A stretch of 64,000 nucleotides of DNA from a virus (Duplodnaviria; Caudoviricetes), in IMG/VR virus record IMGVR_UViG_3300037418_002116. One strand, given 5' to 3'. A model generated the notes under the pieces. It did not search any database, was not told the DNA's origin, and saw only the letters and a list, made by a program, of their open reading frames with translations. Both the position numbers and the translations under genes were made by a program. Each line of letters starts with the position of its first letter. Within the stretch, counting starts at the first letter, position 1. This document shows positions 11,920-62,253 of this stretch, in pieces.

Positions 11920-11972
11920 GTTGACATCCTCAATATTTCGATTATATTAATCTCGACATAGAGAGGAATTCG
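11920..11972 (+). promoter_or_regulatory. Early (host RpoD-type) promoter and RBS
   Basis: GTTGAC-N16-TTATAT followed by GAGAGGAATTCG-ATG; the same architecture recurs many times in the window. Confidence 0.8.
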
Positions 11973-30070: not shown

Positions 30071-31264
30071 ATGCCCGGCATAAATTTTAAACTCTCCCAT
30101 TTGAATGCATTTTCTAAACGAGGCGCTAGAAATCCGTTCGCTCTATTCACCTATGATATTGATTTTGCCGCTGGCACTGTCAAAGGCGGAACACAACCTT
30201 ATGGAAACAACACCAATGATGGTCGTTTGTTTCGTGATCCGAGCAACATTACCGCAACTTTCTGCCCAAATGCAGCCGGTACACTATCATCCGTTGGTGC
30301 AGCCGGTCTAAGACGCACAACCAAAGGTGTATGGTCTTACATGTCTGGCACAAACTCTGTTCTTTGGAACAGAGACTTGACCAACGCTGTTTGGACAAAA
30401 ACCAACATGACGGCATCGAAAACCACAACGGGCGCTGATGGCGCTGCTAATGCCGCAACTCGACTAACAGCAACAGCGGATGGAGCAACTGTCACACAGG
30501 CTTTTACTTCTACCGTAGCCCAAAAGGTCTTGTCGCTTGATATCAAGCGTGTCACCGGCACAGGCGATATTACCCTATCTCTTGACGGCGGCGCAACAAG
30601 AACATCGATCCTATCGGGTTTAACGACTTCTTATACCCAAAAATTTATTACACAATCCGTCACCAACCCAACCATTGAAATTCGTTTCGCCACGAACGGA
30701 GATGTATGTGATGTCGATTTAGTACAAATGTGCGTTCCGTCGATTGCCGGTTTGAATATACCGACACAACAACGCTATGCAACTACGACAGCAACCGTAA
30801 TCAACTCACAGTCACGACCAAACGTCGCTTCTGCCGATGCTGGACCACTGTTTCCCGTTACCAATGCTCCATTTGGTTTCTATTGGCAGGGTAGATCGGA
30901 AAGACCAACTGGTGGTTATGTCATCACATCGGACGGAACTTTATTTTGTAACGTTACGGGCACTGGTGCAATAACATTTACAGAAAATCCGGCAGCTTCA
31001 ACAACGGCGGCGGGTGTTTGGCGCACTGGACTCGGAAATATAAACAAAGTAGCTGGTTGGGTATCTTCAACCCAAATCAAAGTTGCATGTAACGGGCAGC
31101 TTGGAAATCTTGGGTCCGGCGTTGTCTTCTCGGGATCACAAACCCACTGGGATTTGGGAACAAACGGTTCGGGTGCCAACACCTTAATGGGACTCAATGA
31201 AAGGTTCGCAGTCGGTGCGAACCTTGTATTCACTGATGCCGAATTGATTTCAATGACGACTTAA
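30071..31264 (+). CDS. Head spike/fiber protein
   Basis: T/G/A/S-rich beta protein; TNSVLWNRDLTNAVWTKTN repeat seen in head-fiber proteins; follows the spike-base gene. Confidence 0.7.
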   Translation: MPGINFKLSHLNAFSKRGARNPFALFTYDIDFAAGTVKGGTQPYGNNTNDGRLFRDPSNITATFCPNAAGTLSSVGAAGLRRTTKGVWSYMSGTNSVLWNRDLTNAVWTKTNMTASKTTTGADGAANAATRLTATADGATVTQAFTSTVAQKVLSLDIKRVTGTGDITLSLDGGATRTSILSGLTTSYTQKFITQSVTNPTIEIRFATNGDVCDVDLVQMCVPSIAGLNIPTQQRYATTTATVINSQSRPNVASADAGPLFPVTNAPFGFYWQGRSERPTGGYVITSDGTLFCNVTGTGAITFTENPAASTTAAGVWRTGLGNINKVAGWVSSTQIKVACNGQLGNLGSGVVFSGSQTHWDLGTNGSGANTLMGLNERFAVGANLVFTDAELISMTT

Positions 31265-31944
31265 GCCGTCACGAACACGAAAACAGCCGAGTCCTGCCAC
31301 TTGATTCCCACGATATCCCAACCCATCTTTTTGAGAGTCTTGGGTTGAACTTCAATGAATTCGATGGCCGATTCATCTTCACCGGAAACGGCGACCACTG
31401 CCTTTTTCATGTCGTCAACGCAGCCGGGATAATTGTCGAAATCGGAAGTCCAAGAAAACATGTAGGGCTTGGACGAATTTCCACCTAGCGCCTCGACCGA
31501 CTGTTTGAGATTCTTCGAACGAGGATGCGAATTGGCAGTGATCAGGCGCATGATGTTCTCCGTTCAATCGAGGGGATCGGTCTTTAGATCGTCGTACTTG
31601 TCTTCCGCCGACTGCCGAATTTCCTCGATTTCCTTTTCGAGAATGATTGCGGCGAGCGAACCGGGATTCACGCCCGCAAGCTGTTCCTTCAATCGGGCAA
31701 TTGGAGCGCTGAAACGAGTGTTGCCGTGATCAGCAAACCACTGGACATAATCAAACATTGGCCTTCTCCACAAGCTGTTCAATCGTCTTCTGCGAAACGT
31801 GACCACGATCCGAAACGACCGTCATCACATGCTCTTCCTGCTTGGTCTGGACAGCGAAGCCGGGAAACTCGGGATCGATTTCGGCTACCTTGTAACCAAC
31901 CTTTTCAAGGGCATGGACGGCATCAACGACAAGCATTTCGTCAT
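31261..31944 (-). CDS. Early hypothetical CDSs (31261-31551, 31564-31758, 31751-31944)
   Basis: Behind the early promoter at 31945-31996. Confidence 0.6.
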
Positions 31945-31996
31945 TCCTCTTTCTCTCTACATTCATCAATATAATCAGAATGTAGAGAGTGTCAAG
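31945..31996 (-). promoter_or_regulatory. Early promoter with perfect 12-bp inverted repeat around the -10 box
   Basis: CTTGAC-N16-TTATAT; CTCTCTACATTC (31953-64) / GAATGTAGAGAG (31978-89). Confidence 0.85.
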
Positions 31997-41256: not shown

Positions 41257-44200
41257 TTAGCACGATTCATGGTCGAATCTCCAAAACTCACGACCATTCT
41301 TCATTTCGGCAAGCAATTTTCGAACTTGGGCGGCATGAGCCTCAAACTCTTCATCCGAAAGCGGGCGAAAATATTGTTCCAACCGAACAATTTTGTAATC
41401 ATGCGGATATTTCTTAGCCCATTCCCATTCGGTCGATGCCTCCAATTCCTCTTTGGTGGCAAAGCGCTTGAATTCGATCGGATAGGTAGCCGAATATGAC
41501 CCATGAGGGTATTTGGAATCAGCGGAAAGCCAGCGAGGATAACCGCCTAACATTCCACCTTCGTCTTTTTGTTCGATAGTCCAGAATTCTTTCAAATTTT
41601 CTTTCCTGTCCCATTGCAGGAAGAGCATTTCGGGCTTCCTGTGGTGTCGTAACGTCCGGAACCGTTGCAAGCCGTGCAGACCTTCGGCTTTTCCTTCTGA
41701 ACGATTGTGAAGCGCTTAGTCATCTTCGCAAAGCTCCGGAAATTGTGAAGGGATTTCTTCGCATATTGCGGTCTTGGCGGCTTCAAGATAATCGTCCCGT
41801 TCGTCGGGTTCAAAGGCACCGTCACCATTCGGATATGCGAAATAAATCTCATTGCCGAACGGACAATCGGCGGCGAAGCGGCCATGACGAAGGCGCAAAT
41901 AGCCAACCAACGTCTCTTTCCAGTACACATCGTACTGTTCCGGGCACATTTCGCATGTCAATTCGAGTTTCAGTTCTTCGGCAAGGGGTTTCATTGGAAA
42001 TCCTTATAGTTCACGATAATTCTTTCACTCCACTTTCCGGACTCCGGAACTATTGTGACATAACCACCGGTTCGATACGTTGTAGCAGTGCGACCATCAG
42101 CATTCTTGTAGGTGATATAGTGACTCGCTTTGCGCTTTTCAACGTCTGGATAGAAACCATCCTTGATCAGCCAATTATGGGCGATAACAAATGGATGATC
42201 CTGAACTGCCTCAACAAATTCCGGATTAAGCTTGCGAAAATAGCTGTACTTGCCGAAAAATTCAGAGTTGTCATAAACCTTCAAATAGGTTTCCAGACGA
42301 ACACCCTTCGGAACCATTCCTGTGACATGGCAGTAAGCCATGGCGAGTTTTTCGGCAGGCGTTAGCTTGATCATTTCCCCGAACACCTTGGGCAAAATGC
42401 CTTGGTCTTTTCCCGATTGAATTTCCAACCGTCTGCACGGGCCTGTCTGATGCATCCGCTTTCCGTTTGGCTGGCATACTGTGCCCAAGGCCCGCCTGTG
42501 TAATAGCGGGGTTTATTCGGGCAATTGGACCCATAATCACCGTCGCCAGTGTCACAGTACAGGTCCATTGTATAACAGCCAATGACTGGCATCAGTTGTG
42601 TCCCGTTTTTCCTGTTATTTCCAATGTATGCCACCCTGCCGTACCCGGCTTTCCCGCAATTTGCGTAGTGTATCCAAGCTCTGCCAACCGGGCGGCGAGT
42701 CTATCACGACGCTTTTCGCTGGAATAGATCGCTCCACACGAAATGGAGTGATCAGACCATTTACGAACCCAGAAATCGAAATCCAGTTCACCAATTTCCT
42801 TACGAAGGGCCTTGGCACTGGATTTGAACTTCATGGGAGAGGCAAAAGGGAACATTAATTGTGACCCGGCGTCGGTGCATACCACTGCATCATGACCAGC
42901 ACAATCCACAGGGCAGCGGCAAGAGCATACATCATATCAGTACTCCAAAAATCCAGCGTTGTTGGCCATCACTTCGAAGTACGTCGGGATCATCGCCATG
43001 GTGGCAACACCATACTTCTTCAAAGCAGCGTGATAATCGTCCACATGAGCTTCCGGCTCACAATCGTTCATTCCGTGACGATCACACCAATCCATCCACT
43101 CGTAATAGTTCCGGTCGGCAAGGGTGTATTCTTCGTCATAGTATGCCGCCTTCTGCATTTCCCGCTCATAGCAGGCGTCAAGATAGGCGTCGAAATCTTC
43201 GGCAGTGTGGATGCCGGTCTTATTCCAAGCCTCGATATCAGTGTGGAAAATGCCAGCCCAACGATTGGAAGGGTCTTCATCGACCCAAGCCTGCGTTTCG
43301 GCGTTCAGGGCTTCGATGCGGGCAAGAAGATCAGACATTCGAATTCCTCGGTTGTCTCTACATTCGTGAATATAGACAGAATGTAGAGAATGTCAACCGG
43401 GAAAATTTTACATTTCGATTTTTATGCCAATTTTCTTTGCCGCCGTGATTATATCATGCGACTTGGCGATTACCATTTTGAAAAAATTATTAAAAGATTC
43501 CGTGTCGGGCGGATCAAATCTTAAAGGATCATCCCCAAATTCTCCGCACCAGACTGCCACGGAAAATTTTTTTGCCAGTTCGTAGTCTTCTTTGGACAAA
43601 TCTTTTAGGTGTTCGACTCGTGTGATCAACCGAAACTCTCCCCGGCCTTCTGTGCCTCTTGCTGATAGTAGGAATGCCACTGCTTGTGACAGTCATCCTC
43701 GGGATGGAATGGATTGGCCGACTCCGGAATGCCCATGCGAGCGGCCTTTTGGGCGTTCTCTCGAATTTGATGTTCCGGCGTCGGCTTCGAACCCGATTTC
43801 AAAATTTTCATTTTCATGCTTCCCTCACGAATTGTATGTGCCGACTTGATAGCTCTCGCCATCCTTTGACAAGTTGATGACGATTCCCGAATAGAACGAG
43901 TCGGAATGGTAGCCATCCCATGGAATTTCTTTTGGCGCAAGCATGAAATCGGACACATGATACCAGCGTCCTAGATAGCGAAAAAAACCATCGGACGAGT
44001 CGGCATCGTCCAGATGGTCAAAGTCTTTTCGAACCCTTTTCGGCACATCAGCGCCATAGACAAAATGTTTCCATTTGTTGTCGGTGCGGACGTGTACTTC
44101 GCTCATTTTTCGTCAAGTTCCTTCTTTATTTTCGTATGATACCTATCGATGCAGCCACGAATTTCTTCAACGGTTGTTCCGTGACTGTACGGGTAGGATG

Positions 44201-48905: not shown

Positions 48906-50043
48906 AAATCATGTGTTTAGCTTTGAAGGTTTCCCATTTCAGCTTTTGTGTAGAGTTTTTCTCGATACGCTTCAAGATTGCCGTTCTAGCAGGCTGTTCA
49001 GCGAATTGAGCGAATAGAATCGGAACATCGTCCGGCTCAAATTCCTTCGCAAATTCTAGTGCAAACTTCTTACGATCACCCGAAGATTTTTGGTACACAT
49101 CGTTATAGATTGCATGATATTTCGATTCTTGGCGATTTACAGACGCCCAGAATTCTTGTTCAAATTCAATTACCCTATTAAGGTCTTCTTCTATCAGTAA
49201 TGATTTCAAGTCATCGATCTTTTCTTGAAGGATGGCTTGAACAATGTTGTATTCAGCGGAATTAACAAGTTCTTTCGAATTATGCATTAGGCAATATTCG
49301 GAAGTTTTGAATTTCAGCATGTGCCCGTTGTCGAAACGAAGCACATAACCTTCAATACCTTGTTGGTCCTGAACACTCGCAATAAATTGGGCGAGTTCCT
49401 TTTGACTATTATATGTTGCTACAGTGGGAATATCCCAATGACCGGCTAACTCTTTCATCTCTTCCGGATGAAAATATTCACCAGTATCATTATATCTTAT
49501 AGCAGTTAATATCAAATTGTCAATAGGATAATCTATAACTATCCTATTTTTACGGGAAGTCCACTCAAATATTGGTGTAATTTCTTCCTCATCACAGTAT
49601 TCTGCAAACTTGTTGTACTTCTTATTGGCATATGCAAAATACTCTGCATTATTTCCAACATCCGTGATACCCATCTTTGTTCCCCAACGGAAGCCGTTGT
49701 GCAGACGGAGTGGCGTGATCATGGAACCGTCAAGCTTTTCGAACACCGTGTGGGGTTGCGATAGGTCGATAAGGTTCGCTTGCGTCTCTGGACGTTCGTT
49801 GATGTTGAAAAATTTATGGAAACGACGGGACAATAATTTTCCGTCCGGAGCAAAGACAATGCCTCGGCACTCACGACGGAGAGCATCATTCAGAGTCGTG
49901 ACGGGCGGAAACGAATCCGGCATGTGGACCACATAGTTGATAACAATGTAATCCTCTTTGTCACAAACAATGAATTCGTCCCGGCCTTTGATAGCCGGGA
50001 GAACATCATCAATCGTGCTTATTTTTGGAAATTCGTAAAACAT
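48904..50043 (-). CDS. RNA ligase 1 (T4 Rnl1/gp63-like)
   Basis: RECRG, FHKFFN, EKLDGS adenylation motif, FEW, EGYV, LKFK. Confidence 0.92.
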   Translation of the reverse strand: MFYEFPKISTIDDVLPAIKGRDEFIVCDKEDYIVINYVVHMPDSFPPVTTLNDALRRECRGIVFAPDGKLLSRRFHKFFNINERPETQANLIDLSQPHTVFEKLDGSMITPLRLHNGFRWGTKMGITDVGNNAEYFAYANKKYNKFAEYCDEEEITPIFEWTSRKNRIVIDYPIDNLILTAIRYNDTGEYFHPEEMKELAGHWDIPTVATYNSQKELAQFIASVQDQQGIEGYVLRFDNGHMLKFKTSEYCLMHNSKELVNSAEYNIVQAILQEKIDDLKSLLIEEDLNRVIEFEQEFWASVNRQESKYHAIYNDVYQKSSGDRKKFALEFAKEFEPDDVPILFAQFAEQPARTAILKRIEKNSTQKLKWETFKAKHMI

Positions 50044-50829
50044 TTTTCTGTTTCAATTCATTCAATGATTTGGCTTTAGACCACTCAAAATTGTATGGAT
50101 TCTGATAATAAAGAACATCGTCAATGTATTGATATTGATGAAAAGGGCCAGTATTTGCTTGTGGAATATCAGGATTCCCAAACAAATAATCTTCTGCCGT
50201 AAAAGAGTTGGCTACTGTTACATTGCCATCCCCAATATATTCATGTGTCGGCGGTTTTAGATTAACCTCTGGTTTCAATGCCGCCTGTTTGACTGCATCA
50301 GAAAGTAATTTATTCTTCATCAGTTAGATTTATAAAAGAATTTACAAACTTTTGTTCTTTTTCGAAATTAGCATTGGCGTATGGTTCGGTCGGTTCGTGA
50401 GCGACCTTTGCCAACTCATCTAGTTTTTCATCGACAATCTTTGTCGCTACCGGATGATTATTCGCAACTTTACGAATAGATTCGTAAATTCTTATTTCTT
50501 TTTCAGTGAACCACGGCTTATGGGTATTCAATCAATAGTCCTGCGGTCTTGGTAACCATCAACTTCATCAAACCTGTAAATGAAGGTGCATACAGAGAAT
50601 GGACAGATTGCTCTATCTGAACGGGTGATGTTTCCAGAGTATTTTCGACAAGCCAATGCATTGACCACATTTCGTTCGTGGCCTTGGCTTTCTGGAATGC
50701 CAATTCAGAGTCCCATTCGTCGGGATTGAATGGAATATTCTCGAAAAGCTCTTCAACAGTGCATTCTTGCTGCTTTTGGAAATTGTGAAAAATCGACAAA
50801 TCCCGATGTTGGGGAAGTATTACAGACAT
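50009..50829 (-). CDS. Three hypothetical CDSs (50009-50320, 50310-50531, 50518-50829)
   Basis: Operon overlaps. Confidence 0.6.
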
Positions 50830-50857
50830 GTTATCCTATGTTAGAAAAGGGGTTTTG

Positions 50858-50865
50858 CATAAATA
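50858..50865 (+). promoter_or_regulatory. Late promoter variant CATAAATA
   Basis: One mismatch to TATAAATA, 26 nt upstream of the 50891 ATG. Confidence 0.7.
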
Positions 50866-50890
50866 TGAAAAGAAACCAAAGGGAATATAG

Positions 50891-51577
50891 ATGAAATCCT
50901 TTAAACAGTTCCTTGTTGAACAAGAGGTAGATCAGCAAAAAATTGTTGAATTCTACAATCAACTGCTACCTAAATTGCAGCATGTCGAAAGATCATTCGA
51001 TCAAGTTTTGCGGGCATCCTTGCCGAAGCGCATTTCCAAGTGGAAAGGCCCCGGCGAATACCATAAGGCTCACAATGTGAATCCGGTTGTCTTGACCGAT
51101 ATCAAATCTATTGGTTCGGTTATCTCAAAGGTCAAGCGTGGCAAAAAGGTCGAACAGATTGGCGACTTGGTTCGTGGCGCTGTTCTGATGCCGGATCACG
51201 CTGGCGTTGAAGAATTTGTCAAAAGTTTCATTCGCAAAAATCAGGGAATCATCGCCAAGCACGAAATCAAAGCCCATGGCGGCGATCTTGAATATGGCTA
51301 TTACGGTTCGCAACACCTTGATTTGATCATCGACGGTTTGCGTGTCGAGCTACAGGTTATGACTCAAAAGCTCTGGAAAATGAAACATGCCGCTCACGTG
51401 ATTTATACGAAAACCCGTGAAACAGGCGCTACAGAATCCGATAAAATTCAGTCACGAAACATTTTCAAACAAGGCAACAAGCCTAAGTACGTGCGTGAAG
51501 AAGATGTGCCGGATGATTTCGAAGCGCTCTTGGAATTCATGCAAGAGGAAGACCGCTGGACGCTCTTCCTCGATTAA
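50891..51577 (+). CDS. RelA/SpoT-type small alarmone synthetase-like protein with capsid-targeting-like N-terminus
   Basis: MKSFKQFLVE; IKSIGSVISK (Syn1), GDLVRG (Syn2), YGYYGSQH (Syn3), ELQVMT (Syn4), HVIY. Confidence 0.8.
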   Translation: MKSFKQFLVEQEVDQQKIVEFYNQLLPKLQHVERSFDQVLRASLPKRISKWKGPGEYHKAHNVNPVVLTDIKSIGSVISKVKRGKKVEQIGDLVRGAVLMPDHAGVEEFVKSFIRKNQGIIAKHEIKAHGGDLEYGYYGSQHLDLIIDGLRVELQVMTQKLWKMKHAAHVIYTKTRETGATESDKIQSRNIFKQGNKPKYVREEDVPDDFEALLEFMQEEDRWTLFLD

Positions 51578-51969
51578 TAGGGCTCTTGGACAGCGAAGTA
51601 ATAGAACACACCATCGCTCTCTGCCATCGTGTAGGCACCCACAAGCTTCTTTGCGAGCTTCTTTGCGAGATAGGTGTAAACCTTCTGCTTCTTATCCGTG
51701 TTCGACGTGAAGAAGAACATGTGGGGCTTCTTCGAACCAAGCCACTCCATCATAATGGACTCAAGCTTGGTGAACACCTTCTTTGAATTCTTGAAGTAGT
51801 TCCTATCCCGCATACCGAAGTCAACGGCATCATCGTTCCATCTGGGAACGAAAGCGTTCATCTTGGTAGCACCACCGATCACATAAAAGCTTACAGAACC
51901 GGCATCGGAAACCTCAAACCGGTAGGCAAGACCGTCGATAGTGAACTTCTTTCTGTACTGCATTCTCAC
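51574..51969 (-). CDS. Hypothetical protein
   Basis: High-expression-like codon usage; own promoter near 52010. Confidence 0.7.
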   Translation of the reverse strand: MRMQYRKKFTIDGLAYRFEVSDAGSVSFYVIGGATKMNAFVPRWNDDAVDFGMRDRNYFKNSKKVFTKLESIMMEWLGSKKPHMFFFTSNTDKKQKVYTYLAKKLAKKLVGAYTMAESDGVFYYFAVQEPY

Positions 51970-52019
51970 TCACTTTCGGCCTTTATGTAGTCCATTCTTG
52001 AACGATTGTCAATAGAAAA

Positions 52020-53051
52020 TTATTTTGACCGTTTTTGATATGGAACCATCACGAATGCATCAGATGGAAATGCTTGTTTTAATTGATCTATTTTACTCTT
52101 TGCCTTATCGACCGAAAATGCAATTTTTCCATCATCTCGTTTGAAAGCGAAACCGATTTTTCCACCGTGGCGGCGATGCACAGTCACCATTCCATCCTGC
52201 GGTTCTTCCTTAGAAGATTCGGCTTTCTTAGCCTTTGGTTTGGCTTTTGTCGTTGTCGATCCCTTAGAATCGGTATCCTTCTGCCATGTTTTCATATCCG
52301 GCTGTAGGAGAGATGATGGCTTAGGCTTCTTCGGATATGGATTTTTATCGAGCTTGGAAATTTTCGTTCTGAAAAATTTCTTCATGTCGTGTTCATCCGG
52401 AGCGTTCTTTGCCAGCCAATCATGCAGCTTGGCTTGGATGGCTTGGGCTTCCGCCATCGGCTGGCCAGACTTTTTCACCGACAGAAAGCAGAGTCCTTTC
52501 AGGTGAAATTCGGTATTGTCGGAATCGGAAAATTTCACGGCATGATTGTCGTTCTTCAAAAGGATTTTCACATCACCGTCGATCTTCCCCGGCAATTTGC
52601 CGTTCAAAACTCCCTTCATGAATTTGCTGTTGTCCAGCGTCTTCAAAGTCACGTCGTGAGGATAGATATCCCGGCGTGTCGAATTGCGCTTGACTTCGAT
52701 GTGGTAATTCGACATGGCCCAACCGATATGGATATTTTGCGGCTCATAGCCGAACTCCAAAAGGTGAGGGATGATTTCCTGAATGCTTTCGGCATTCGCA
52801 GCCAAAACATCAAACATGATATTTGGTAGAGATTCCGAAAAAACAGTTCTGACCTTTTCCAGATAGGTCATTGCCGGTTTCCAGTTCTTTCCCGAATACT
52901 GTTTGAACTTGGTATGCTCCATGAACATTTTGTGGCTGTAGCCCATGTCTGTCTCTTTATCAGCGACAACAAAGACTACTTGTCCATCGGTTTGACCATC
53001 ATTGAAAACAATAAGGTTTTCAGCAAGATAGCGTTGTTTGAAGTTTTTCAA
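52020..53051 (-). CDS. Putative internal head protein, degenerate P-loop kinase-like
   Basis: MKNFKQRYLAE N-terminus; LIVFNDG..DGQVVFV, NIMFD, GY..IHIGW, RN..R features of a zeta-toxin-like T4 family, but no GxxxxGK. Confidence 0.5.
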   Translation of the reverse strand: MKNFKQRYLAENLIVFNDGQTDGQVVFVVADKETDMGYSHKMFMEHTKFKQYSGKNWKPAMTYLEKVRTVFSESLPNIMFDVLAANAESIQEIIPHLLEFGYEPQNIHIGWAMSNYHIEVKRNSTRRDIYPHDVTLKTLDNSKFMKGVLNGKLPGKIDGDVKILLKNDNHAVKFSDSDNTEFHLKGLCFLSVKKSGQPMAEAQAIQAKLHDWLAKNAPDEHDMKKFFRTKISKLDKNPYPKKPKPSSLLQPDMKTWQKDTDSKGSTTTKAKPKAKKAESSKEEPQDGMVTVHRRHGGKIGFAFKRDDGKIAFSVDKAKSKIDQLKQAFPSDAFVMVPYQKRSK

Positions 53052-53057
53052 TGAAAT

Positions 53058-53094
53058 CCTCGGATAGCTTGTTTTCTTTATTTAGCTATCCGAG
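53058..53094 (-). promoter_or_regulatory. Late promoter (GCTAAATA) embedded in an 11-bp hairpin that overlaps the RBS
   Basis: Minus strand CTCGGATAGCT-AAATAAAGAAAACA-AGCTATCCGAG-GATTTCA-TTG. Confidence 0.7.
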
Positions 53095-53099
53095 TTTAG

Positions 53100-53786
53100 T
53101 TATCGCATGAACTTCCGTTTGTGGATGTCGATGCCGTCATAGGTCTTTTCGACTTGGAAGTACCATGTTCGATCCGGCCTTTCCGTGTTGAAACGGACGG
53201 CTGACAACGGTCCACCGAACACGCAACCGGTATCGATGTTCAATTGGTTTTTCCGCTCATAGATCGCCTGTACCGGCGTATGACCATGCGTGACATAGTA
53301 GCCATATTCGTAATCGTCATTGTAGAAACGAAAATCCCGGTCCCATATGATGGTCTGTTCGTTCTGGTCTTCCATGCATTTCGAAGGATCGATTCCGGCA
53401 TGAACGAATACGTAATGGTCATATTGGTAATAGAGACGGAGCGACTTCAAAAAATTCATGGTCACTTCGTCCTTATACCAAAGCTGGCCATGATAGGATT
53501 CGACAGTTGCCGCTCCACCATTCTGCATCCAATGCCAACCTTTGCCGTCACGCATCATGTCTTCATGATTACCTTTGATGTAGATATGCTCTACATTTTC
53601 CGGCTGTTCACGACGGCGCTGGTCCAGAAAATGAATCACACCACGGGAATCAGGACCACGGTCCACATAGTCACCAATGGTGATGATTTTGGCTTCGTTG
53701 TCGCCTCGATCTTCGTCAATCAAGGCAATCATAGCCTGTAGTTCGGCAAGGCATCCATGGATGTCACCGATAGCGTATAGTAGCAT
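53100..53786 (-). CDS. Ser/Thr protein phosphatase (PPP/ApaH-like metallophosphoesterase)
   Basis: IGDIHG, GDYVDRG, GNHE, FVHAG, HGHTP, IDTGC motifs. Confidence 0.92.
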   Translation of the reverse strand: MLLYAIGDIHGCLAELQAMIALIDEDRGDNEAKIITIGDYVDRGPDSRGVIHFLDQRRREQPENVEHIYIKGNHEDMMRDGKGWHWMQNGGAATVESYHGQLWYKDEVTMNFLKSLRLYYQYDHYVFVHAGIDPSKCMEDQNEQTIIWDRDFRFYNDDYEYGYYVTHGHTPVQAIYERKNQLNIDTGCVFGGPLSAVRFNTERPDRTWYFQVEKTYDGIDIHKRKFMR

Positions 53787-53800
53787 TTTAAATGGACCTA

Positions 53801-54262
53801 TTAAGAAGCGGTTCCGTTGCCCACGTCGAGAACGAAAATTTTCCGCTTGTTATACACGTTTTGGATGACACCGGGACGATCTTCGAACGCCATGAACACC
53901 GGGCCGTATGTCGCCTCGATATGGTCAAGTAGGTCGTGCTTGGCCTCCCAATCCGGACGATTGTCACCCTTAGCCCGCATGATCAGTACATGACGAGAAA
54001 AGTTGTTCTTGTCCAGCCATTGTTCCGTGATTTCTCGTTCTTCCTCGGAACGGGCAGTCATGATGATGCAAAGATTGTCGGGAAGTGTCGCCAGCGCATT
54101 GAAAATATATTGCGTCTGGGGAATTGGGTCGTCATTGACCGACAATTCCATGAAGGCTTTCCAGTTCTTTGGTTTCGACTTGATTAGAGGCAGTCGATGT
54201 GCCGAGTCTGAAATTGTTCCGTCAATATCCCAAACTATGATTTTCTTAATTATTTCCTGCAA
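53801..54262 (-). CDS. HAD-family polynucleotide 3'-phosphatase (PseT phosphatase-domain-like)
   Basis: WDIDGTI, MTAR, LIMRAKGDNRPD..AK, FEDR motifs. Confidence 0.88.
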   Translation of the reverse strand: MQEIIKKIIVWDIDGTISDSAHRLPLIKSKPKNWKAFMELSVNDDPIPQTQYIFNALATLPDNLCIIMTARSEEEREITEQWLDKNNFSRHVLIMRAKGDNRPDWEAKHDLLDHIEATYGPVFMAFEDRPGVIQNVYNKRKIFVLDVGNGTAS

Positions 54263-56159
54263 TACCTTTTTCTCTCTTCGATTCGCTTACAATTCGTTCT
54301 AAAATATTCAGCTTCCAAGTTAGGCGCTGTTGTTCCAATTCGGCATGACGATTAACGAGCGCCAAAGCCATTATCGGACTATCATCCTTGATTTTGTCAG
54401 CACGGTCCAACAGTTCATCATTTCGATTCCGCCAATCGGAATCGAATTTGATTTCATGTGGTTCGGCGTGTTCTGAAAATTTCAGTTCAGACATTATTTG
54501 AACAATCTGGCCGGTTTTCGTTGTAGTCCATGGCGTCTGCGATACCGTTCAGCGATTCTAAATGCGATTGAATTTAGTCTGCAATAACAGTAGGAATGAT
54601 CCTTTTCAGGACCAAGACAGCCACACGCACTTCCATACCACACGTTATCTGGGTGTTCCAACCACCAAATAATGCTGGAACGAAGCTGCTGTTTAATTGG
54701 CAACTTGTATTCCACAGGTTGGATCGGCTGTGGACGATGTTTTGCTCGCAGTTCTTCCAATCTACTTAGTTCAGACATTCGTACTCATTCGCCTCTAGCG
54801 TAATGTACTGAATTGTCTTCGAATAATCCCGAACGACATAAAATCCGTTCGGAAGAATGGCGTTAACCAACACCAGCCGCAATTTTTTGAACATTCTCAC
54901 CCTCTCATGGTATTATGAACAATATATCCGAATTTCAATAGGGAGTCAACCCGGATATTTCTTTAATTCATAATATGTGTAATCCGAATTTTTCCCCTGC
55001 ATATAATCCATTTCCAGCTTATGATAGTTCAGCATTCGACCAAATCGAGCCGAATCGATGATACCACATGCTTTGCAGCCATTGGCGATGGTTTCTGCCC
55101 GCTTGGCAACCCGCTCTTCCGTGGTTTCATCCTCGGACATTTCCCACAAATCGAAATATGGATTGTCGTTGGCGTTGGCGTCCAGCCAAGCATCATATTG
55201 CGGAACATTGTCTCGCAACCACTGGCGAACTTTTTCACCAGATTTGAGGGTGTTCTGGCTTCGCAGAATATTGCAAAGCTCTATCGCCTCTTTCTCGGTT
55301 TCCACATACAGGAAAGGATCACACACATGGTGATCATAATCAGATTCTTCATAACAAATTGCGTACATGTTTCAATCCTTCCCCAAAAACCAATTCCAAA
55401 AGTTTTTGCCAAAAATTTTCCATAACGACTTGAAATTTGGAAGAGTGAAAGTGTCGATCCTTACTTCACTTGTTTTAACAAAAACCACTGGCAACGGGTT
55501 GTCACCACGCTTCCATTCGTTCGGGCGATAGCAACAAATATAACCATCGTCGCCCGGAACTTTCAATCCAGTACCAAAAACTTCTAATTTGATGCCGGAA
55601 TCATGGATCACATCGACATATTTGATTTCTTTGCCGTTCTTGTCTCTATGATATTCGAGTGACATGGTTCAACCCTTCAACTGAATGGTCGTCGTGCCAT
55701 CGTTCTTTTTTGACACGATGATTTCCCGATCAGCAAGGCGAAGTGTGTTCACCGTCTGATGTGAAGCCAGAAGGAATTCCAGAAGGGAATCCACCTGTCC
55801 GGCTTTGTGCTTGTATTCCTGATACTTTGAAGTCATCAATCATCATCCATCTGGTATAGATCATACTTTTCGCAGATCACAGCCCAATTCTTCTTAATAA
55901 ATTCTCGGCATTCTTCTTCGGTCGAGCGCTTTGCCTTCAAGGTAATCCATGCGAAGTCACAAGGATCAGCTTCGGAAGGAACTTTCTTGACCATCAGGCG
56001 AATAAACCAGTCATCACCTTGACTGGAAAATCGATTCGGAGGCGTGATCGCACCGCACTTCTTCTTATCAGCCTTGATTTGTGTGGTCGGGTTCGGTTCG
56101 GCAATCGCTCGCAAACCGGTTTCCTTCTTTTCCTTCTTAAAACTTAGCTTCATGTTCAT
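54246..56159 (-). CDS. Small hypothetical CDSs (54246-54494, 54494-54778, 54946-55368, 55372-55665, 55836-56159 and short ORFs between)
   Basis: Co-oriented ORFs behind early promoters near 54950 and 56203. Confidence 0.6.
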
Positions 56160-56204
56160 TCCTCTTTGTCCAATTTATATAATAGAAATATATAGATGTC
56201 AAGA

Positions 56205-56570
56205 GGCGAATCTACAAACGAAAGTGGGCTTGTTTCGCACTCCACCGCATAGAAGACGGTTGGAACGAAACAAGCCCTTTCTGGCTTGGCCACGAAGCCG
56301 CTTTCAAAGGAACATGGTGCGAACAGAAATTCTACTCCGATGGTGAATCTCTGCTTTATGTTCCGTCTCGGCGCTCGGATTGTTGTAACGGGCCGTAATC
56401 CGGTAGCCCAAATATACACTCACACTTTGTTTCACACGCAAGCCCGGCAAGGTGACCAATTATTCGGTCGAAGCCTTTGTGATTTTTGCCAATCACATTT
56501 CTGTTGTGGCGGTGCCGGTCCCGCTTAGCGGGGGCTTTTGCCCATGCCGCATTGATAGCGGCTTCAATCA
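56205..56570 (-). ncRNA. Candidate large structured ncRNA
   Basis: No credible RBS-led ORF; multiple long helices; G-U pairs favour the minus strand. Confidence 0.5.
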
Positions 56571-56609
56571 ACAATCAATCTAGGTTTCGGCGCTTTGTCA
56601 AGCATGAAA

Positions 56610-56828
56610 ACAACTTAGAAGAAAACACACCTACCTTTTCTTAATGGGGCCTGTTCAGTTCCCCGGTTTCTATAAAAAAGGGTTGGTGAACGTCCTGCAC
56701 CGTTCTTTAATCCCCATGTGTTCGGGGAACCCACAAGAAACCAGTCCGCTGACATCAATTTCTGACCGCCTAGGCTGGCTTCCTACTTCCTTTCCGAGAA
56801 AGCGCTACTTCCGTCTCGCTCCCTACAG
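56610..56828 (-). ncRNA. Candidate structured ncRNA behind its own early promoter
   Basis: GTTGAC-N16-TTATAT at 56862-56835; downstream hairpins, no SD-led ORF. Confidence 0.35.
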
Positions 56829-56898
56829 TCATCAATATAATCACCATTTTTCTGGTGTCAACAGGAAAAATTCAAAAAATGAAAATTTCTGGAACAAT

Positions 56899-57504
56899 TT
56901 ATGATTCTATAATCTTTTCAATGACTTCCCAAATCTCGTCTTCATCCATCACTTTGGAGAACGGACATACCGATGGAGCATCTATCGCTTTGATAATCCT
57001 AGCGTTTTCTTTGAAAATGTGTTCACGACGGAGGAATGTGATGGTCGGGACAGGGTATTCGATTCTATGGAAAACATCCCGAGTGAGATTGTAGGTCTGT
57101 CCGGTTTCCACCGTGAAGTCGGCTAGACGATGAATCATGCACTCACCAAGGAATGCCGGTTCTTTGCCAACGTCATCCTTTTTGCATGACACTTCATAGA
57201 GTCCATATTCGGCAAAACACACACTCTCATATGTGTAAAGCGTATTCATCAGAGCGCCTTTGATGACGGTCGATGAAAAATCGTAGCGGTGATCGTGAAT
57301 TTCCTCTTGATCGAGGATTGGCATAACGTCCGGATGATAGAAGTGGAGGCGTTCGACGGCATTCAGTTTGAGTTGGATGAAGCCAAGTCCAAAATAATTC
57401 GGTTTACCCAGAGTTTTCAGCCGGGCAATGTCAAGATATTCGTGTTTAGGCATTTTTTCCTTCATTAGAAATGAAAATGGCAACGAAGAAAACTCCGCTG
57501 CCAT
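56899..57504 (-). CDS. Cupin-like protein
   Basis: RLHFYHP...IHDHRYDFSSTVIKG...VFHRI metal-binding double-stranded beta-helix pattern. Confidence 0.55.
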   Translation of the reverse strand: MAAEFSSLPFSFLMKEKMPKHEYLDIARLKTLGKPNYFGLGFIQLKLNAVERLHFYHPDVMPILDQEEIHDHRYDFSSTVIKGALMNTLYTYESVCFAEYGLYEVSCKKDDVGKEPAFLGECMIHRLADFTVETGQTYNLTRDVFHRIEYPVPTITFLRREHIFKENARIIKAIDAPSVCPFSKVMDEDEIWEVIEKIIES

Positions 57505-57509
57505 TTTAT

Positions 57510-58118
57510 TTAGTTGTTCACCACAAGTTTCAGCTTAGGTTGCTGAACATTCAATGTGCCGGGTGCAAATCCCGGTAGGAACTGTTCCCAAAATGCGTCG
57601 TCAATCGTCATCGGATACCGCTTACGAATTTCGAGCATCTGATAGAATGATGGTTCAAAGATTTTTTTCTTTGGAGCCCATCTACCAACTGGCAAAGATG
57701 CACCTTTCATGAGATTGCATGAAGGACATGAAGCCACAACATTTTCCCATTCGGTCTTACCACCTTTAGCTCTTGGAATCACATGGTCATCCGTGATGGA
57801 ATTCGATTGATTCCTTTGAGTAGTCAAAGGCATATCGCACCAGAAGCACTTACCAGAATCACGATAGTACAAGGTTTCCTTGTTCAACTGAATCTTGTTC
57901 GTGAATTTTCTGGCTGAATTGGTAACGATCACTGATGGCCAACGCAAATCCGTTCTTGACGGAGTCAAGATTGGCCGATCATACCAATGCACAACATTGT
58001 TCTTACCAAGCAGATATCCCACAATGGCGTCACGTGCCGGAATAAGCGACAACGGAAACACCGAATGCGGCATAAAATTCTTGTTCAGGACCAATGTTCT
58101 CAAATTTACTTCTGACAC
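57510..58118 (-). CDS. HNH endonuclease (McrA-like)
   Basis: RDSGKCFWC...TDDHVIPRAKGGKTEWENVVASCPSCNLMKG. Confidence 0.9.
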   Translation of the reverse strand: MSEVNLRTLVLNKNFMPHSVFPLSLIPARDAIVGYLLGKNNVVHWYDRPILTPSRTDLRWPSVIVTNSARKFTNKIQLNKETLYYRDSGKCFWCDMPLTTQRNQSNSITDDHVIPRAKGGKTEWENVVASCPSCNLMKGASLPVGRWAPKKKIFEPSFYQMLEIRKRYPMTIDDAFWEQFLPGFAPGTLNVQQPKLKLVVNN

Positions 58119-58145
58119 GTTTCTAACCTTTCTCCTATGTCAATA

Positions 58146-58500
58146 GCTATGTTCAATAAAGAATCTAATGAAATCAAGCAAGTAACGAAATGTTACAAAA
58201 TGTTACTTGACTATTTCTCCATACTCTTCTAAGGTGACTCTTTATGAGCCTTTATGAATCTTAGTGATTCAATGGTTCTTCGGTAACTTCGTTACCTTCG
58301 AATGTTCTTCGAACATATCTAGTGTTTATATCAATAGATTCTGAAACAAATTACAGGATTTTGGTGAGAAATCCGATAGAATGGGGTTCCAGACCATTTT
58401 ATTTAGAGCGTTCGCCATACCATAGAAAACCAGAGGAATCAATAGACAGCCAAAAAATTCAAATTATTGAAAAATAGCCTCTTGACACTCCATTCTTGTT
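58146..58500. other. AT-rich non-coding divergent region with short direct and inverted repeats
   Basis: AAATGTTAC twice, CTTTATGA twice, GGTAAC/GTTACC, ATGTTC/GAACAT; promoters at both ends. Confidence 0.45.
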
Positions 58501-58550
58501 CATATAATTATTCCCTGTAAGTTGAAATGCGAACCCAAGGGAAGGGTTGA

Positions 58551-59855
58551 TTGCGAATGAAGCAAGTTAAGAATCCCCACGATTTCTACCGCATGGCAAA
58601 TGCCATGTTCGGTGAGACTCGTGACGTTAGCCGCCTAGGTTGGGCGGAAATCGAAGCCATTTCGGTTACGAACGATGTTCGTGTTCCGGGTTGGGTTCGT
58701 GCTTCCGCTACCGGCAAGGGTAAGAATAAGGTCTACTCGACCGTTCCTCCCAAGGCCACGTCCGATGTCAACACGCTGAACGGTGCGGTTCCGGCTAATA
58801 AGCCGAAGGTCCAGTATTACGTCAAGGTTTCGCCTCGTAATCTGGAAACCAACAAGTTCATGTCGGTGAAGGATGATCCGATTGCACAGGCTATGACCGC
58901 CGATTTGGAGTCCGCTCTGAATGCGTCGGCTTCGCCGGTTGCCATCGATGCCGCCACGGTCGATCCGGAAAAGCTCTTTTCGGATATGGCTGACCTTGTG
59001 TCGCTAGTCGTTGATAACGTCGCCAAGGCGCTGCTTATCTATGGCGGCGGCGGCACGGGCAAGAGCTTTGGTGTCTATGAAGCTCTTAGACAGGCTGGCT
59101 ACGTTCGGGATGAAGATTTCTTCGTCTACAAGGGCAAGGTCACTCCTGCTTCGCTCTACCAGATCATGTTCATCCACAGGGATGACAACAAGCTTCTGGT
59201 GTTCGATGATGCCGATAGCGCTTGGGAATCCGAAGACTCGGCTATGATCCTTAAGGGCGCTCTCGATACCACGGATATGGAAAACCGTGAAATTTCGTGG
59301 TCCACCAATCGTACCGTCAACGTCGATAAGTGGGACTCGGAAAAGCGGGCCAAGTATGCCGCCGAAATGGACGAACTGCTTGAAAAGCAGGGCGACGATG
59401 AAGAGGAAGACGCCAAGCCGGAATCGGTGACTCCGGAACAGGCGGCGTTGGAGCCGGAAAAGTACTTCAAGGATGGCCGTCCGAAGATGAAGGCTTTCCA
59501 GAAGAAGGAAAAGGTTTTCCGGATGCCTGCGAAGTTTGTCTTCCATGGTCGTGTCATCTTCATTTCGAACAAGCCTCGTTCGGACTTCGATAAGGACGTT
59601 CTGACTCGGTGCTACAAGATCGACATGAGCTTGACGCCGGAACAGATGTTCATGCGGATGGAAAAGCTTCTGCCCTACATGGTGCCGGAAGTTCCGGAAG
59701 CCACGATGGATTTGAAGCATCGGGTTCTGGTGACCTTGAAGGCTCTGTACAAGTCGGGCAATCTCGAAAACCCGAGTCTTCGGACCTTCGATGCGGCTAT
59801 CAGGATTGCCGCAAGGGGCAAGCCGAATTGGGCAGACCTTCTCCGTTACACCTGA
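58551..59855 (+). CDS. AAA+/SF3-like P-loop ATPase
   Basis: LLIYGGGGTGKS Walker A, LLVFDDAD Walker B, VIFISN sensor, TRC arginine finger; strongly biased codon usage. Confidence 0.8.
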   Translation: MRMKQVKNPHDFYRMANAMFGETRDVSRLGWAEIEAISVTNDVRVPGWVRASATGKGKNKVYSTVPPKATSDVNTLNGAVPANKPKVQYYVKVSPRNLETNKFMSVKDDPIAQAMTADLESALNASASPVAIDAATVDPEKLFSDMADLVSLVVDNVAKALLIYGGGGTGKSFGVYEALRQAGYVRDEDFFVYKGKVTPASLYQIMFIHRDDNKLLVFDDADSAWESEDSAMILKGALDTTDMENREISWSTNRTVNVDKWDSEKRAKYAAEMDELLEKQGDDEEEDAKPESVTPEQAALEPEKYFKDGRPKMKAFQKKEKVFRMPAKFVFHGRVIFISNKPRSDFDKDVLTRCYKIDMSLTPEQMFMRMEKLLPYMVPEVPEATMDLKHRVLVTLKALYKSGNLENPSLRTFDAAIRIAARGKPNWADLLRYT

Positions 59856-59870
59856 TCGGTGTCGCAACAA

Positions 59871-59898
59871 GAAAGGCCCGGATCACTCCGGGCCTTTC
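59871..59898. terminator. Bidirectional terminator hairpin
   Basis: GAAAGGCCCG-N8-CGGGCCTTTC between convergent transcripts. Confidence 0.8.
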
Positions 59899-59899
59899 G

Positions 59900-60139
59900 C
59901 TTTATCGGTCTTTCCCGATTGTCCGATAGAACGATCTTCCGGTTTAGAAACGATTCTCCGTTACCACAGATTCAAACCCGCTCATTCGGGATGTTTCCAT
60001 ATTGGTAAGGACCACGAATGCTTCCGGTGGATTGGAGAGTCCAGTCAGGACGAAAGGATAAACAACCGACTGGAAATCCACGAGCTTCTATCTGCCATCC
60101 GTTACTTCTACCCGTGCCACAGATGGCTAGGCACGATGC
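59900..60139 (-). ncRNA. Candidate pseudoknotted structured RNA
   Basis: H-type pseudoknot and multibranch helices; see findings. Confidence 0.45.
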
Positions 60140-60298
60140 TCACACACGAAACCATAGCGCATAGGCGCACAAAACTCCATACAGGACATACCACGTCCAA
60201 GCTGGCGGGCGGAAGTCAATACCGCCATCCATCCACTCGACCGTGAAGCCGGTCGGTTCATTCAACTTCTTTTTCAGTTTCTTGATATCGTATTTCAT
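60140..60298 (-). CDS. 52-aa membrane-anchored peptide
   Basis: MKYDIKKLKKKLNE...WTWYVLYGVLCAYALWFRV. Confidence 0.55.
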   Translation of the reverse strand: MKYDIKKLKKKLNEPTGFTVEWMDGGIDFRPPAWTWYVLYGVLCAYALWFRV

Positions 60299-60304
60299 GG
60301 CCAT

Positions 60305-60898
60305 TCAATTCGCTATGGCCTTACCAAGGCCCGGAATAATCTCTAGAAGGCGCTCCGTCTCGACAAAGAACCACACCTTCGCTCTACCGTTTGGCGTGGC
60401 CATTTCGGTATATGCTTGCTCGTCATACGCCACAGCAGCGGTGGAATGGGTCACACAATCCACCAGACACACGGCGATCTTGGAATCTTTGGTTCGCATC
60501 CCCGGCGATGCACCAACGGGCAAAACCACGTCGGCGTTTTGCCGTAGCCATTCCTCTTTGGTCATATCAGGCGGATTGATGTAATAGCTCATGCGATTCT
60601 CTTCCTTTTCTTCAAAACCGATGATGTGCTTTTTCTCGAATTCAATCAGCATGTTAGGGAACAAAATCCCGGCGAAGATGAATGGTTGATTCATCAACAC
60701 CCCTGCGAATTTGTTGCCGTTGATTTTGGTAACCTCAACCCACATGCGTTCGTCGCCGTCTTCACCCACAGAAAGAAAACAGAGCTTCACATAGTCGCCT
60801 ATGCGAATTGCAGCCTTTTCAGCGTTTGATGGTATCTCAAAGGTGTGTGGCGACCGATTGTGAGCCCGAACGCCATCCAAGAGCCTGTAGAACTGCAT
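60305..60898 (-). CDS. Two-domain hypothetical protein (N-terminus DUF2314-like) with internal start at 60592
   Basis: GDYVKLCF...ERMWVEVT...GVLMNQP; internal AAGGAAGAG-N6-ATG. Confidence 0.6.
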   Translation of the reverse strand: MQFYRLLDGVRAHNRSPHTFEIPSNAEKAAIRIGDYVKLCFLSVGEDGDERMWVEVTKINGNKFAGVLMNQPFIFAGILFPNMLIEFEKKHIIGFEEKEENRMSYYINPPDMTKEEWLRQNADVVLPVGASPGMRTKDSKIAVCLVDCVTHSTAAVAYDEQAYTEMATPNGRAKVWFFVETERLLEIIPGLGKAIAN

Positions 60899-60905
60899 TG
60901 GAGCC

Positions 60906-62253
60906 TCACAGAAGCGTTGCGGCGGGTTGATTGGCCTTTGCAGCCTCTTGTCTTGCCTTGCGATCTAGAAGCTGTTCTTGAACCGCTATAGCGACGGATG
61001 TAATCCGTGACTCGATGTCGGAAAGCTCATTCAGCATTTCCGTGTGCTGGTCACGTGCCAATTCATAGGTTCCGGCTTTTGCCGTCTGATAGTCACGCCC
61101 ATGTGGCGTTCCTTCCCGCAAGAGCCCCTGTAGCGTGTGAACAGCGTCCAGAGTCTTGATATAGTGCGCCATCAACGAGTCACCGTCTGTGCCGTTCAAA
61201 TTAAGAACGGGAAACGCTATCTTGTTCGGTTGGTTCATTTGCTTTCCTCCTTTTCAATCCCTTTTCGGCTAAGGCGAAACCGCCCCTAATTTCCTTTAAG
61301 CGTCGTATCGACATGCCGTCATAGGTTTCATAGAGCTTGAACCACTTCCATGCTGGCGGGTTCGACAATTCCATCAGTTGCAGGACAAGCTTTTTCTTTT
61401 CCTGCATCAGCTATCAGCCTTCCTCGATACCACGTTCCGAAAAGTCGTTTTCGGCATCGAAAACTTTAATGATCCGGCCTTCCTTGGCGGCGACAACATG
61501 AGCATCAGCGACCTTCGCCATATGGTACAGTTGTGCCTTGGCAATTTCCTTGGCCTTGTCCGTACCAGTTTCGAACGCCAGAACGATGATATCAGCGATT
61601 TTGTTCCACGACGGAGTCATGTCAACCGTGCCGACTTCGATTTCGGCATTTTCCTTCAATCGAGGATCGTCGGGCTCAACATAAGTTTTTATGCCATACT
61701 TATCCGGTTCGCCAAGCTGGACTTGTTCCGGATGAAGTTTGCTGCCGTAATAAGTTGCATTCATTGATCGACTCCTATTTTCCCTAATATAATGTTTCTA
61801 TTGAAGAAAATCAAGTCAATAATAACGCCATTTTTCGTAGGGAAACTTGTCGTCATTGGCTTTCAGGAAGGCGATACCGTCTGCCGTAACCGGGCGATAG
61901 CTGCGAAGCGCATGACCATGAATGTGACCGCCATTCTTGGAAATCGAGCCATCCCAATTTTTCCATTCGAAAAAGCGCAAAAATTTGTCACTGAATTTTT
62001 TCGGTGGCGAGCCTCGGCGTAGTGGCCCAAGGTGCCCATCGTCAATCAAGCGCTGAACGTCCGGATTATCCATCCCCACGCCACCTTCACAATGGAAGTA
62101 CAGGCCACCCGACAATGGTCCCTCTTTACGCTCCAAATCGGCAATAGAAATGTAACCGAGTCGCCAGCCAATTCGATACCACGAATAGCATCCAACGGCA
62201 CGGCGTAAGAGCTTGATCCGCCTCCCAAGTGATTTGTGTTTATCAGCACTCAT
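60906..62253 (-). CDS. Hypothetical CDSs (60906-61238, 61201-61407, 61414-61764, 61816-62253)
   Basis: RBS-led ORFs behind promoters near 61815 and 62303. Confidence 0.65.

Follow-up and report, generated by a model that had tools for sequence, protein, structure and literature searches.

What does a soil phage keep in a 741-nt gap between two of its genes? The window, i.e., the whole 64,000-nt stretch of phage DNA analysed here, carries every gene on the minus strand from about 52 kb to 58.1 kb. Within this run, the gap (56160-56898) is flanked by a 201-aa gene (56899-57504) and a 107-aa gene (55836-56159), both on the minus strand. A first-pass annotation had flagged 56205-56570, inside the gap, as a hairpin-rich, ORF-poor stretch of about 370 nt and had proposed that it encodes a new large structured phage ncRNA. 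This proposal gains support from a promoter and a terminator, syntenic homologues, compensatory base changes, the lack of a conserved frame, the lack of an Rfam match and presence in RNA libraries. We are confident that the locus is a real, stand-alone structured RNA gene. The best explanation overall, which we put forward tentatively, is a ~610-nt stand-alone minus-strand ncRNA gene of an uncultured soil phage with a trans-acting, multi-module role.

The flagged stretch is indeed rich in hairpins and poor in ORFs. Its fold on the minus strand has a z of -4.97, with none of 100 shuffles as good, and that on the plus strand a z of -3.23; for the entire gap, the values are -4.09 (minus strand) and -3.32 (plus strand). 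In two related loci, L007 and L012, G-U replaces A-U or G-C pairs at positions where the opposite strand would have A-C mismatches. Thus, it is the minus strand that folds, and this agrees with the direction of the promoter and the terminator. Coding potential was checked by comparing the stop-free stretches of all versions of the locus in six frames. Similarity between homologues is present in all six frames and switches frame between blocks, and one segment of the window matches L001 in three frames. Indels are not multiples of three (50 nt between the window and L001, 81 nt between L008 and L007), and no conserved reading frame was found across the versions in this six-frame comparison. The overlapping ORFs 56156-56419 and 56356-56574 (87 aa and 72 aa) are not conserved and are therefore rejected as coding. 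The first-pass annotation had noted that they lack an RBS and phage-like composition.

The signals that delimit the transcript are as follows.

56834-56861, minus strand: early sigma-70-type promoter of the RNA gene (-35 TTGACA at 56861-56856, 16-nt spacer, -10 TATATT at 56839-56834)
~56828 to 56215, minus strand: predicted whole transcript, ~610 nt (start from the promoter, end from the terminator, both sequence signals only)
56215-56277, minus strand: intrinsic terminator (12-bp stem 56277-66/56237-26 with an inner hairpin, tail ACUUUCGUUUG)
56174-56202, minus strand: promoter of the 107-aa gene, outside the RNA (-35 at 56202-56197, -10 at 56179-56174; RBS and ATG at 56159 come next)

The promoter of the RNA gene scores 11 out of 12 in a promoter scan and matches a phage-wide consensus, TTGAC-N17-TATATT, of which the window has 9 copies against 0.08 expected. 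This consensus is the phage's general early promoter type, of the kind used by the host polymerase. Instances of the pattern TTGAC-N17-TATA(T/A)T start at 11921, 13438, 28240, 31968, 32657, 34187, 40889, 43369 and 56834. The motif (G/C)AATGTAG(A/G) comes after several of the copies, so the TGTAGG with which the RNA region opens is part of the promoter surroundings rather than a mark of the RNA itself. All homologues have this promoter at the equivalent position. Elsewhere in the window, the copy at 31968-31995 (minus strand) points into ~400 nt without an ORF of more than 80 aa before the gene 31261-31551; these ~400 nt may be another non-coding unit.

At the other end, a G+C-rich hairpin followed by a U-rich tail closes every homologue. 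The helix 56226-37/56266-77 with its inner hairpin, noted at first as one of several stems, is the stem of this terminator. It is conserved and is rebuilt with other letters in relatives, for example GGGCUUGUUUCG, GGGAGUUUCG and GGGGAGAUAC. Thus, the flagged stretch is real but its boundaries were wrong, as it covers the 3' two-thirds of a ~610-nt RNA that reaches to ~56828. The two CTTGAC elements that had been read as flanking promoters fare differently. That at 56197-56202 is the -35 box of the next gene, whereas that at 56597-56602 lies inside a conserved module; it is rejected as an internal promoter, since it lacks a usable -10 box and neither L009 nor L039 has it.

Relatives of the 201-aa protein led to homologues in contigs of related uncultured phages. 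Nine syntenic versions can be told apart, namely those of the window, L001, L002, L007, L008, L009, L010, L012 and L039 (L007 is identical to L034 and L035, L010 is identical to L011, and L036 also carries the gap). In the homologous loci the gap comes right after the 201-aa gene and is 384-843 nt long; in the more distant loci L013 and L014 there is none. Blocks with 80-100% nucleotide identity are shared between phages whose flanking protein is only 51-60% identical. The RNAs are mosaics, in which shared modules are separated by variable hairpins, and the modules are inserted, deleted, duplicated and exchanged between related phages as units.

Three modules and variable inserts can be distinguished from the comparison. 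The core pseudoknot domain is carried by the window, L001, L007/L008 and L039, and module C, the 3' module, by the same versions and also by L009 and L012. Module A is found in the window, L001, L007/L008 and L039, and loosely in L009. Module B (AUGUUCGUAAAUGGUUUCACUUAGCU...) occurs in L001, L007/L008, L009 and L039 and in two copies in L002 and L010; the window is without it. A reduced core domain can be seen by eye in L012, where the covariance model of the core (R2) does not detect it. Searches with the models found neither module C nor the core domain in L002 or L010, and module C is absent from the whole of the complete 242-kb contig that bears L002. There is no universal core across the versions, and the locus may hold functionally different RNAs. 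In the sister RNAs of L010 (3594-4147) and L002 (4579-4995), the two module B copies form a tandem pair.

The L008 version equals that of L007 plus an 81-nt insert. This insert, near the 5' end of the RNA, is the sole difference between L008:2339-3069 and L007:3645-4294. The two assemblies, ERZ27258652 and ERZ27258666, have adjacent accessions and are probably from one study, and the difference looks like a live indel polymorphism in the phage population.

The RNA family is small and rare, with no further members in IMG/VR, JGI metagenomes or GTDB species genomes. By blastn, the gap is matched by none of 50,697 phage records. Pattern scans of IMG/VR with core, module A, B and C motifs returned only the contigs of L001, L002 and L010 again, together with two chance matches in coding DNA (L015 and L016), and a protein-guided scan of IMG/VR with the 107-aa downstream protein found no relative. 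Scans of JGI metagenome contigs gave no member (14 matches, L019-L032, are due to chance), and the GTDB species genomes gave one chance match, L040, within an actinobacterial gene. Protein searches with the two downstream genes contributed nothing beyond near-identical contigs.

The core domain has the following predicted parts.

56441-56529, minus strand: core pseudoknot domain (model R2 and compensatory changes)
56524-21/56512-09, minus strand: core hairpin GCGG/CCGC, invariant
56518-13/56449-44, minus strand: core pseudoknot arm of H-type, hairpin-loop CCGGCA with UGCCGG
56496-91/56484-79, 56477-74/56452-49 and 56469-66/56457-54, minus strand: a hairpin, a helix and a second hairpin enclosed in the core

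The long-range arm has the sequence CCGGCA/UGCCGG in both the window and L001; in L039 it is CUGACA/UGUCAG, and in L007 CCGAC/GUCGG. Because its 5' strand lies within the loop of the GCGG/CCGC hairpin, the predicted fold is an H-type pseudoknot. Model R2, which was trained on the window, L001 and L007, recovers the left-out L039 over the exact expected span (23.3 bits, E 8e-4). Across an alignment fitted to R2, 95.4% of the cells are paired, compared with 85.0% in shuffles and 31-48% in slid-partner controls. Seven of the 17 pairs are changed on both sides, and none of 500 shuffles matches the observed values. Infernal re-alignment was used for these alignments because MAFFT alone misaligned hairpins. 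Together with two double-changed pairs in module C, the seven of the core make up the homologue covariation, judged by shuffle test in a small sample of 4 to 6 distinct sequences. We conclude that the core domain is, as predicted from sequence comparison, a conserved pseudoknot supported by compensatory changes. The multibranch domain described originally is thus partly correct: the pairing 56444-49/56513-18 is real and covaries, but it is a pseudoknot arm and not a plain stem. Relatives do not preserve the additional pairing between 56438-43 and 56532-41.

Module C lies next to the terminator.

56275-56412, minus strand: module C (model R1 and pair counts)
56409-06/56393-90, minus strand: module C hairpin
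56402-397/56381-76, minus strand: module C pseudoknot arm, hairpin-loop CGGAUU with AAUCCG
56372-69/56300-297, minus strand: helix GCCG/CGGC around the variable hairpin 56364-56309
56296-56279, minus strand: invariant small hairpin of module C

Five versions went into model R1, which finds both the left-out L007 and L036 with a score of 51.6 bits. In this module 98.9% of the cells are paired, compared with 31-46% in slid controls, and the two compensatory pairs are reached by 11 of 500 shuffles. The double changes are G-C to A-U in the pseudoknot arm of L007 and C-G to U-A in L012. Otherwise the module is mostly invariant in sequence, and a 28-nt stretch, AGCGGCUUCGUGGC-NAN-GCCAGAAAGGG, is nearly unchanged at 51-60% identity of the flanking protein. 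Module C is thereby predicted to be a second H-type pseudoknot, with support from compensation. An R1 match elsewhere in the window (41827-41893, 14.7 bits) lies in coding DNA and was taken as noise. The helices first reported in this part are all present in the window, though not all in the form described. The helix at 56283-99 is the invariant small hairpin UUC-G-UGGC-NNN-GCCA-GAA. The pairing 56376-81/56397-402 is real but is not a plain stem, as it is the arm of the predicted H-type pseudoknot and crosses 56406-09/56390-93. The stem 56309-15/56358-64 with its inner stem also holds in the window; it is, however, a variable insert private to the window: L007, L012 and L039 are without it, and what L001 and L009 carry is different.

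These data bear on the possibility that the gap is a functionless intergenic recombination hotspot filled with hairpins and gene remnants. Such a hotspot would account for the mosaic, fast-changing content and for the homologous loci L013 and L014 that have no gap. It would not account for compensatory changes, for a near-invariant 28-nt stretch among diverged phages, for a dedicated promoter and terminator in all versions or for presence in RNA libraries. We regard this explanation as highly improbable.

Is the RNA a gene of its own or the leader of the next gene? A separate promoter of the downstream gene follows the terminator in the same arrangement in the window, L001 and L007, and a TTGAC(A/T) -35-like box is found beyond the terminator in L009, L012 and L002. 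Because the next gene has its own promoter there, the RNA is its own transcription unit. The locus has what is expected of a stand-alone ncRNA gene, i.e., its own promoter, an intrinsic terminator and no conserved frame. As a cis-acting leader, the RNA would be a sensor (riboswitch or attenuator) that controls read-through of the terminator into the downstream gene. The predicted pseudoknot and junction of module C, with their invariant unpaired bases, abut the terminator as an aptamer would abut an expression platform, and the T run at 56674-79 would be a possible first attenuation point. However, in addition to the further promoter or -35-like box in the versions examined, the downstream gene is not constant (about 105-107 aa, 254-273 aa or 94 aa, depending on the version), and L002 and L010 are without detectable module C. 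Leaders of the riboswitch or attenuator kind are also, to our knowledge, all far shorter than 600 bases. Thus, we consider a cis-acting leader very unlikely.

The remaining parts of the RNA, from 5' to 3', are less uniform between versions.

56778-56827, minus strand: purine-rich 5' leader (70% purine in the first 50 nt vs 52% elsewhere)
56671-56792, minus strand: variable 5' insert, common only to the window and L039; it ends in a three-way junction and then the T run 56674-56679
56588-56670, minus strand: module A (GGGG/CCCC hairpin, conserved AUUAAGAAA-GGUAGGUGUG, pyrimidine-rich tract, CUUGACAAAGCGCC)
56530-56587, minus strand: window-specific hairpins GCCGC/GCGGC and GGGC/GCCC; relatives have module B or other inserts there
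56413-56440, minus strand: linker with conserved UGUGAAACAA(A/G)GU, common to the window, L007 and L039

The purine content of the 5' leader is 68-80% across all eight versions counted. The block with the 5' insert is 86% identical between the window and L039 over 182 nt, extending into module A, whereas the remainder of the RNA is far more diverged; L007 is without the insert, and it differs in L001 and L008. The sequence of module A is conserved in the window, L039, L001 and L007, and more loosely in L009. A 4-bp hairpin without covariation is the sole prediction for this module, and for much of the 5' half there is no supported pairing beyond it. The T run 56674-56679 amounts to just TTT in L039, and RNA-library contigs have it with one base fewer. 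A separate 150-nt sRNA ending at this run was considered and rejected, on account of the TTT in L039 and of an RNA-library contig that bridges the run. In our reading, the 5' piece belongs to the long RNA, and the T run would terminate no more than a fraction of transcripts.

Supporting evidence for transcription comes from RNA libraries. In four rhizosphere metatranscriptome runs, contigs between them cover 56386-56813; these contigs carry no strand, ends or level, and carry-over of DNA is possible. None of the contigs in the four runs crosses either predicted end of the transcript. The four runs were compared over 50000-62000, and lack of cover elsewhere (most of the other 11 kb) was not counted. 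The stretch is present in 7 soil or rhizosphere DNA runs, and parts of it in 8 metatranscriptome runs. Three RNA-library pieces at 56386-56527 have loose ends that match sequence of the L001 type, so relatives' versions also occur in RNA libraries. Outside the RNA gene these 12 kb have only two covered patches, one of which is a contig at 59978-60116 in one metatranscriptome run.

One of these contigs, 56554-56705, bridges both the T run 56674-79 and module borders, and this is relevant to whether the RNA acts whole. It could be a precursor that nucleases cut into several small RNAs, at least one per module, which then act separately, like processed phage tRNA or small-RNA clusters. Each module is self-contained and can appear, disappear or double without the others, as a precursor would allow, and the long near-perfect hairpin of L010 (~24 bp by manual count, GGAAGGGUGACUAAAAGGUUUCAA...), of a type that RNase III cuts, would suit such processing. 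In contrast, the gap has no tRNA-like or RNase P-type processing signal, the contig spans module borders, and the core pseudoknot joins segments 35 to 133 nt apart, which points to a large folded unit. A precursor is rather unlikely on this evidence.

The RNA matches no catalogued family. With Rfam 15 at gathering thresholds, the whole window gives only four tRNAs, all elsewhere, and relaxing the cut-off to E 10 over 56000-57000 brings up six matches at chance level (12-17 bits against thresholds of 43-195 bits). The families covered include GOLLD, ROOL, OLE, HEARO, raiA, 6S, tmRNA and RNase P as well as group I and II introns, known ribozymes and riboswitches. Rfam also finds nothing within the gaps of seven homologous loci, and ARAGORN finds no tRNA or tmRNA in the gap of the window. 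The absence of tRNA, tmRNA, RNase P and group I signatures, already noticed by eye, is thereby borne out, and the Infernal/Rfam search adds no family match in the gap or its homologues. Downstream of the RNA locus in L001, the closest relative, 5957-6031 has a weak Rfam tmRNA match (20 bits vs a threshold of 47, E 2.5e-4) and is possibly a tRNA-like element; it has no counterpart in the gathering-threshold scan of the window. We found no description of the RNA in the searchable literature, which does not extend to the list of a survey of 10,006 candidate viral RNAs. In kind, the RNA belongs with the large ornate RNAs, and its mosaic build is unusual.

Could the RNA be catalytic? Several ribozyme classes are common in phage DNA, and the predicted pseudoknots have short, nearly invariant junctions, as small ribozymes do. 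However, a search at E up to 10 brings up no family of known ribozymes, a conserved cleavage-site context was not identified, and RNA-library contigs traverse both pseudoknot domains. Thus, a new class of self-cleaving or otherwise catalytic RNA is highly improbable.

The closest comparison is with GOLLD and ROOL. Like these, the present RNA has several hundred nucleotides, multiple domains and pseudoknots, is carried by phages, has no associated protein gene and is of unknown function. Unlike these, its module set differs between close relatives with no single core in all versions, and it is found only in a small group of soil phages. GOLLD and ROOL form RNA-only assemblies (10.1101/2024.12.08.627333). 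A self-assembling RNA-only particle of this type, serving as a cage or scaffold, would be in keeping with an RNA that is large, ornate, phage-borne and, by its context, independent of protein. The palindromic loops of module B (UUAGCUAA or UUAGCUGA), through which loop-loop dimers are possible, and of module C in L039 and L009 (UUCCGGAA) could kiss. However, the module C loop is engaged in the predicted intramolecular pseudoknot, which covaries in L007, the RNA of the window is without module B, and Rfam shows no similarity to GOLLD or ROOL. These two families also have conserved cores, unlike the mosaic, variable architecture seen here. For these reasons, we find an RNA-only particle improbable.

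We favor a different role, although as a possible rather than a probable mechanism: the RNA may be a trans-acting decoy or scaffold. We rank the small-RNA precursor, the GOLLD/ROOL-like particle, the origin primer considered below, the cis-acting leader, the ribozyme and junk DNA all lower. Since the promoter type can be read by the host RNA polymerase, transcription would begin immediately after infection. The host polymerase would transcribe the RNA gene at this point, and the hairpin terminator would end the transcript. The product would be a chain of independently folding modules, two of which (the core and module C) are predicted H-type pseudoknots. It would accumulate early and act in trans, and the sequence-invariant loops and junctions could be binding sites for host or phage factors, so that the RNA as a whole would form a multi-site decoy or scaffold. 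It would be neither an antisense regulator nor the leader of the next gene.

The first-pass annotation had suggested a protein sponge, an antitoxin or a 6S-like decoy, and known decoy RNAs offer partial parallels. The CsrB/RsmZ sponges share with the present RNA a stand-alone gene with promoter and terminator, a repeated-module design with a variable number of modules, and a proposed titration of protein. Unlike in those RNAs, the repeated GGA loop motif is not enriched here, and the modules are mutually dissimilar and include pseudoknots. Counts of GGA and ANGGA are within one s.d. of the shuffled expectation in six of eight versions, and only L010 is far off, being depleted. In the version of the window, GGA occurs 14 times against 12.3 expected, and a CsrB-like sponge is rejected. 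A 6S-like RNA polymerase decoy does not fit in shape, because the RNA is multi-branched with pseudoknots and forms no rod; it also has no 6S match. A type III antitoxin-like repeat RNA does not fit either, because no tandem repeats were found in the RNA of the window by reading and alignment, and no toxin gene adjoins it, the neighbours being a cupin-fold protein and a 107-aa protein of no recognised family. For an omega-RNA partner of IscB or TnpB, the only nearby nuclease is an HNH-only protein of 202 aa whose gene does not adjoin the RNA, and there is no HEARO match. Pseudo-ToxI mimics and RNA anti-CRISPRs are phage decoy RNAs with their own promoter, and their repeat number changes fast under selection. 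They are, however, short tandem repeats that copy a host RNA, whereas tandem units are present here only in L002 and L010, and a scan of the GTDB species genomes found no host look-alike of the RNA.

A more specific version of the decoy role is unlikely, although it would be of interest. In it, the immediate-early RNA would be an RNA-only counter-defence hub with swappable, aptamer-like decoy modules, each directed against its own target in host immunity, which would be a sensor or effector to be inactivated or a signalling nucleotide to be sequestered. If true, this would account for modules that are swapped, doubled or dropped between close phages and yet keep invariant loops.

The position of the locus raises one further explanation, a primer or R-loop transcript of an early replication origin. 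An early transcript is implied at T4 oriE (PMC3016281). Like the T4 oriE transcript and ColE1 RNA II, the present RNA is non-coding, has an early host-type promoter and lies near a strand switch. ColE1 RNA II is similar in size to the present RNA and also needs a defined fold. The locus is 1.3 to 1.7 kb from the strand switch, A+T-rich dip and cumulative GC skew minimum at 58.1-58.5 kb, its early promoter drives non-coding DNA, and the version of L002 has tandem repeats, all of which an origin would accommodate. Unlike origin primers, the present RNA ends at an intrinsic terminator that would release a discrete RNA; the version of the window has no iterons; transcription heads away from the A+T-rich switch region; and conserved pseudoknots with invariant loops would be unexpected in a mere primer. 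A primer is thus quite unlikely. The switch region itself (58119-58550), which is divergent, intergenic and A+T-rich (34-37% G+C) and coincides with the cumulative GC skew minimum, is a candidate replication-origin or control region.

Few large structured RNAs of unknown function are on record, and new classes have tended to bring new biochemistry to light. The value of the present RNA lies in its early phage promoter, its presence in soil metatranscriptomes and a modular, fast-shuffling build that is unlike known large RNAs. Should each module bind on its own, phages would have in this family a natural collection of RNA decoys or aptamers for use early in infection. The core pseudoknot and the 28-nt junction of module C, in particular, are of a size that lends itself to direct testing.

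Among the cupin, HNH and downstream neighbours, we found no evident RNA-binding partner. A gene for the 202-aa HNH endonuclease lies upstream, with the 201-aa gene between it and the RNA. It is present in all RNA-carrying versions with a typed upstream flank, and L013 and L014 are without it; this co-occurrence may reflect mere relatedness. The 201-aa neighbour (56899-57504, minus strand) is modelled as a cupin-type beta-barrel (pLDDT 88) with an invariant HxH...H motif, formed by H70, H72 and H146. Its homologues are in Pseudomonas PB1-like phages and in Caulobacter and Brevundimonas jumbo phages, where they are annotated as hypothetical throughout. Proteins of the window also have weak matches to Caulobacter phages, including Cr30.
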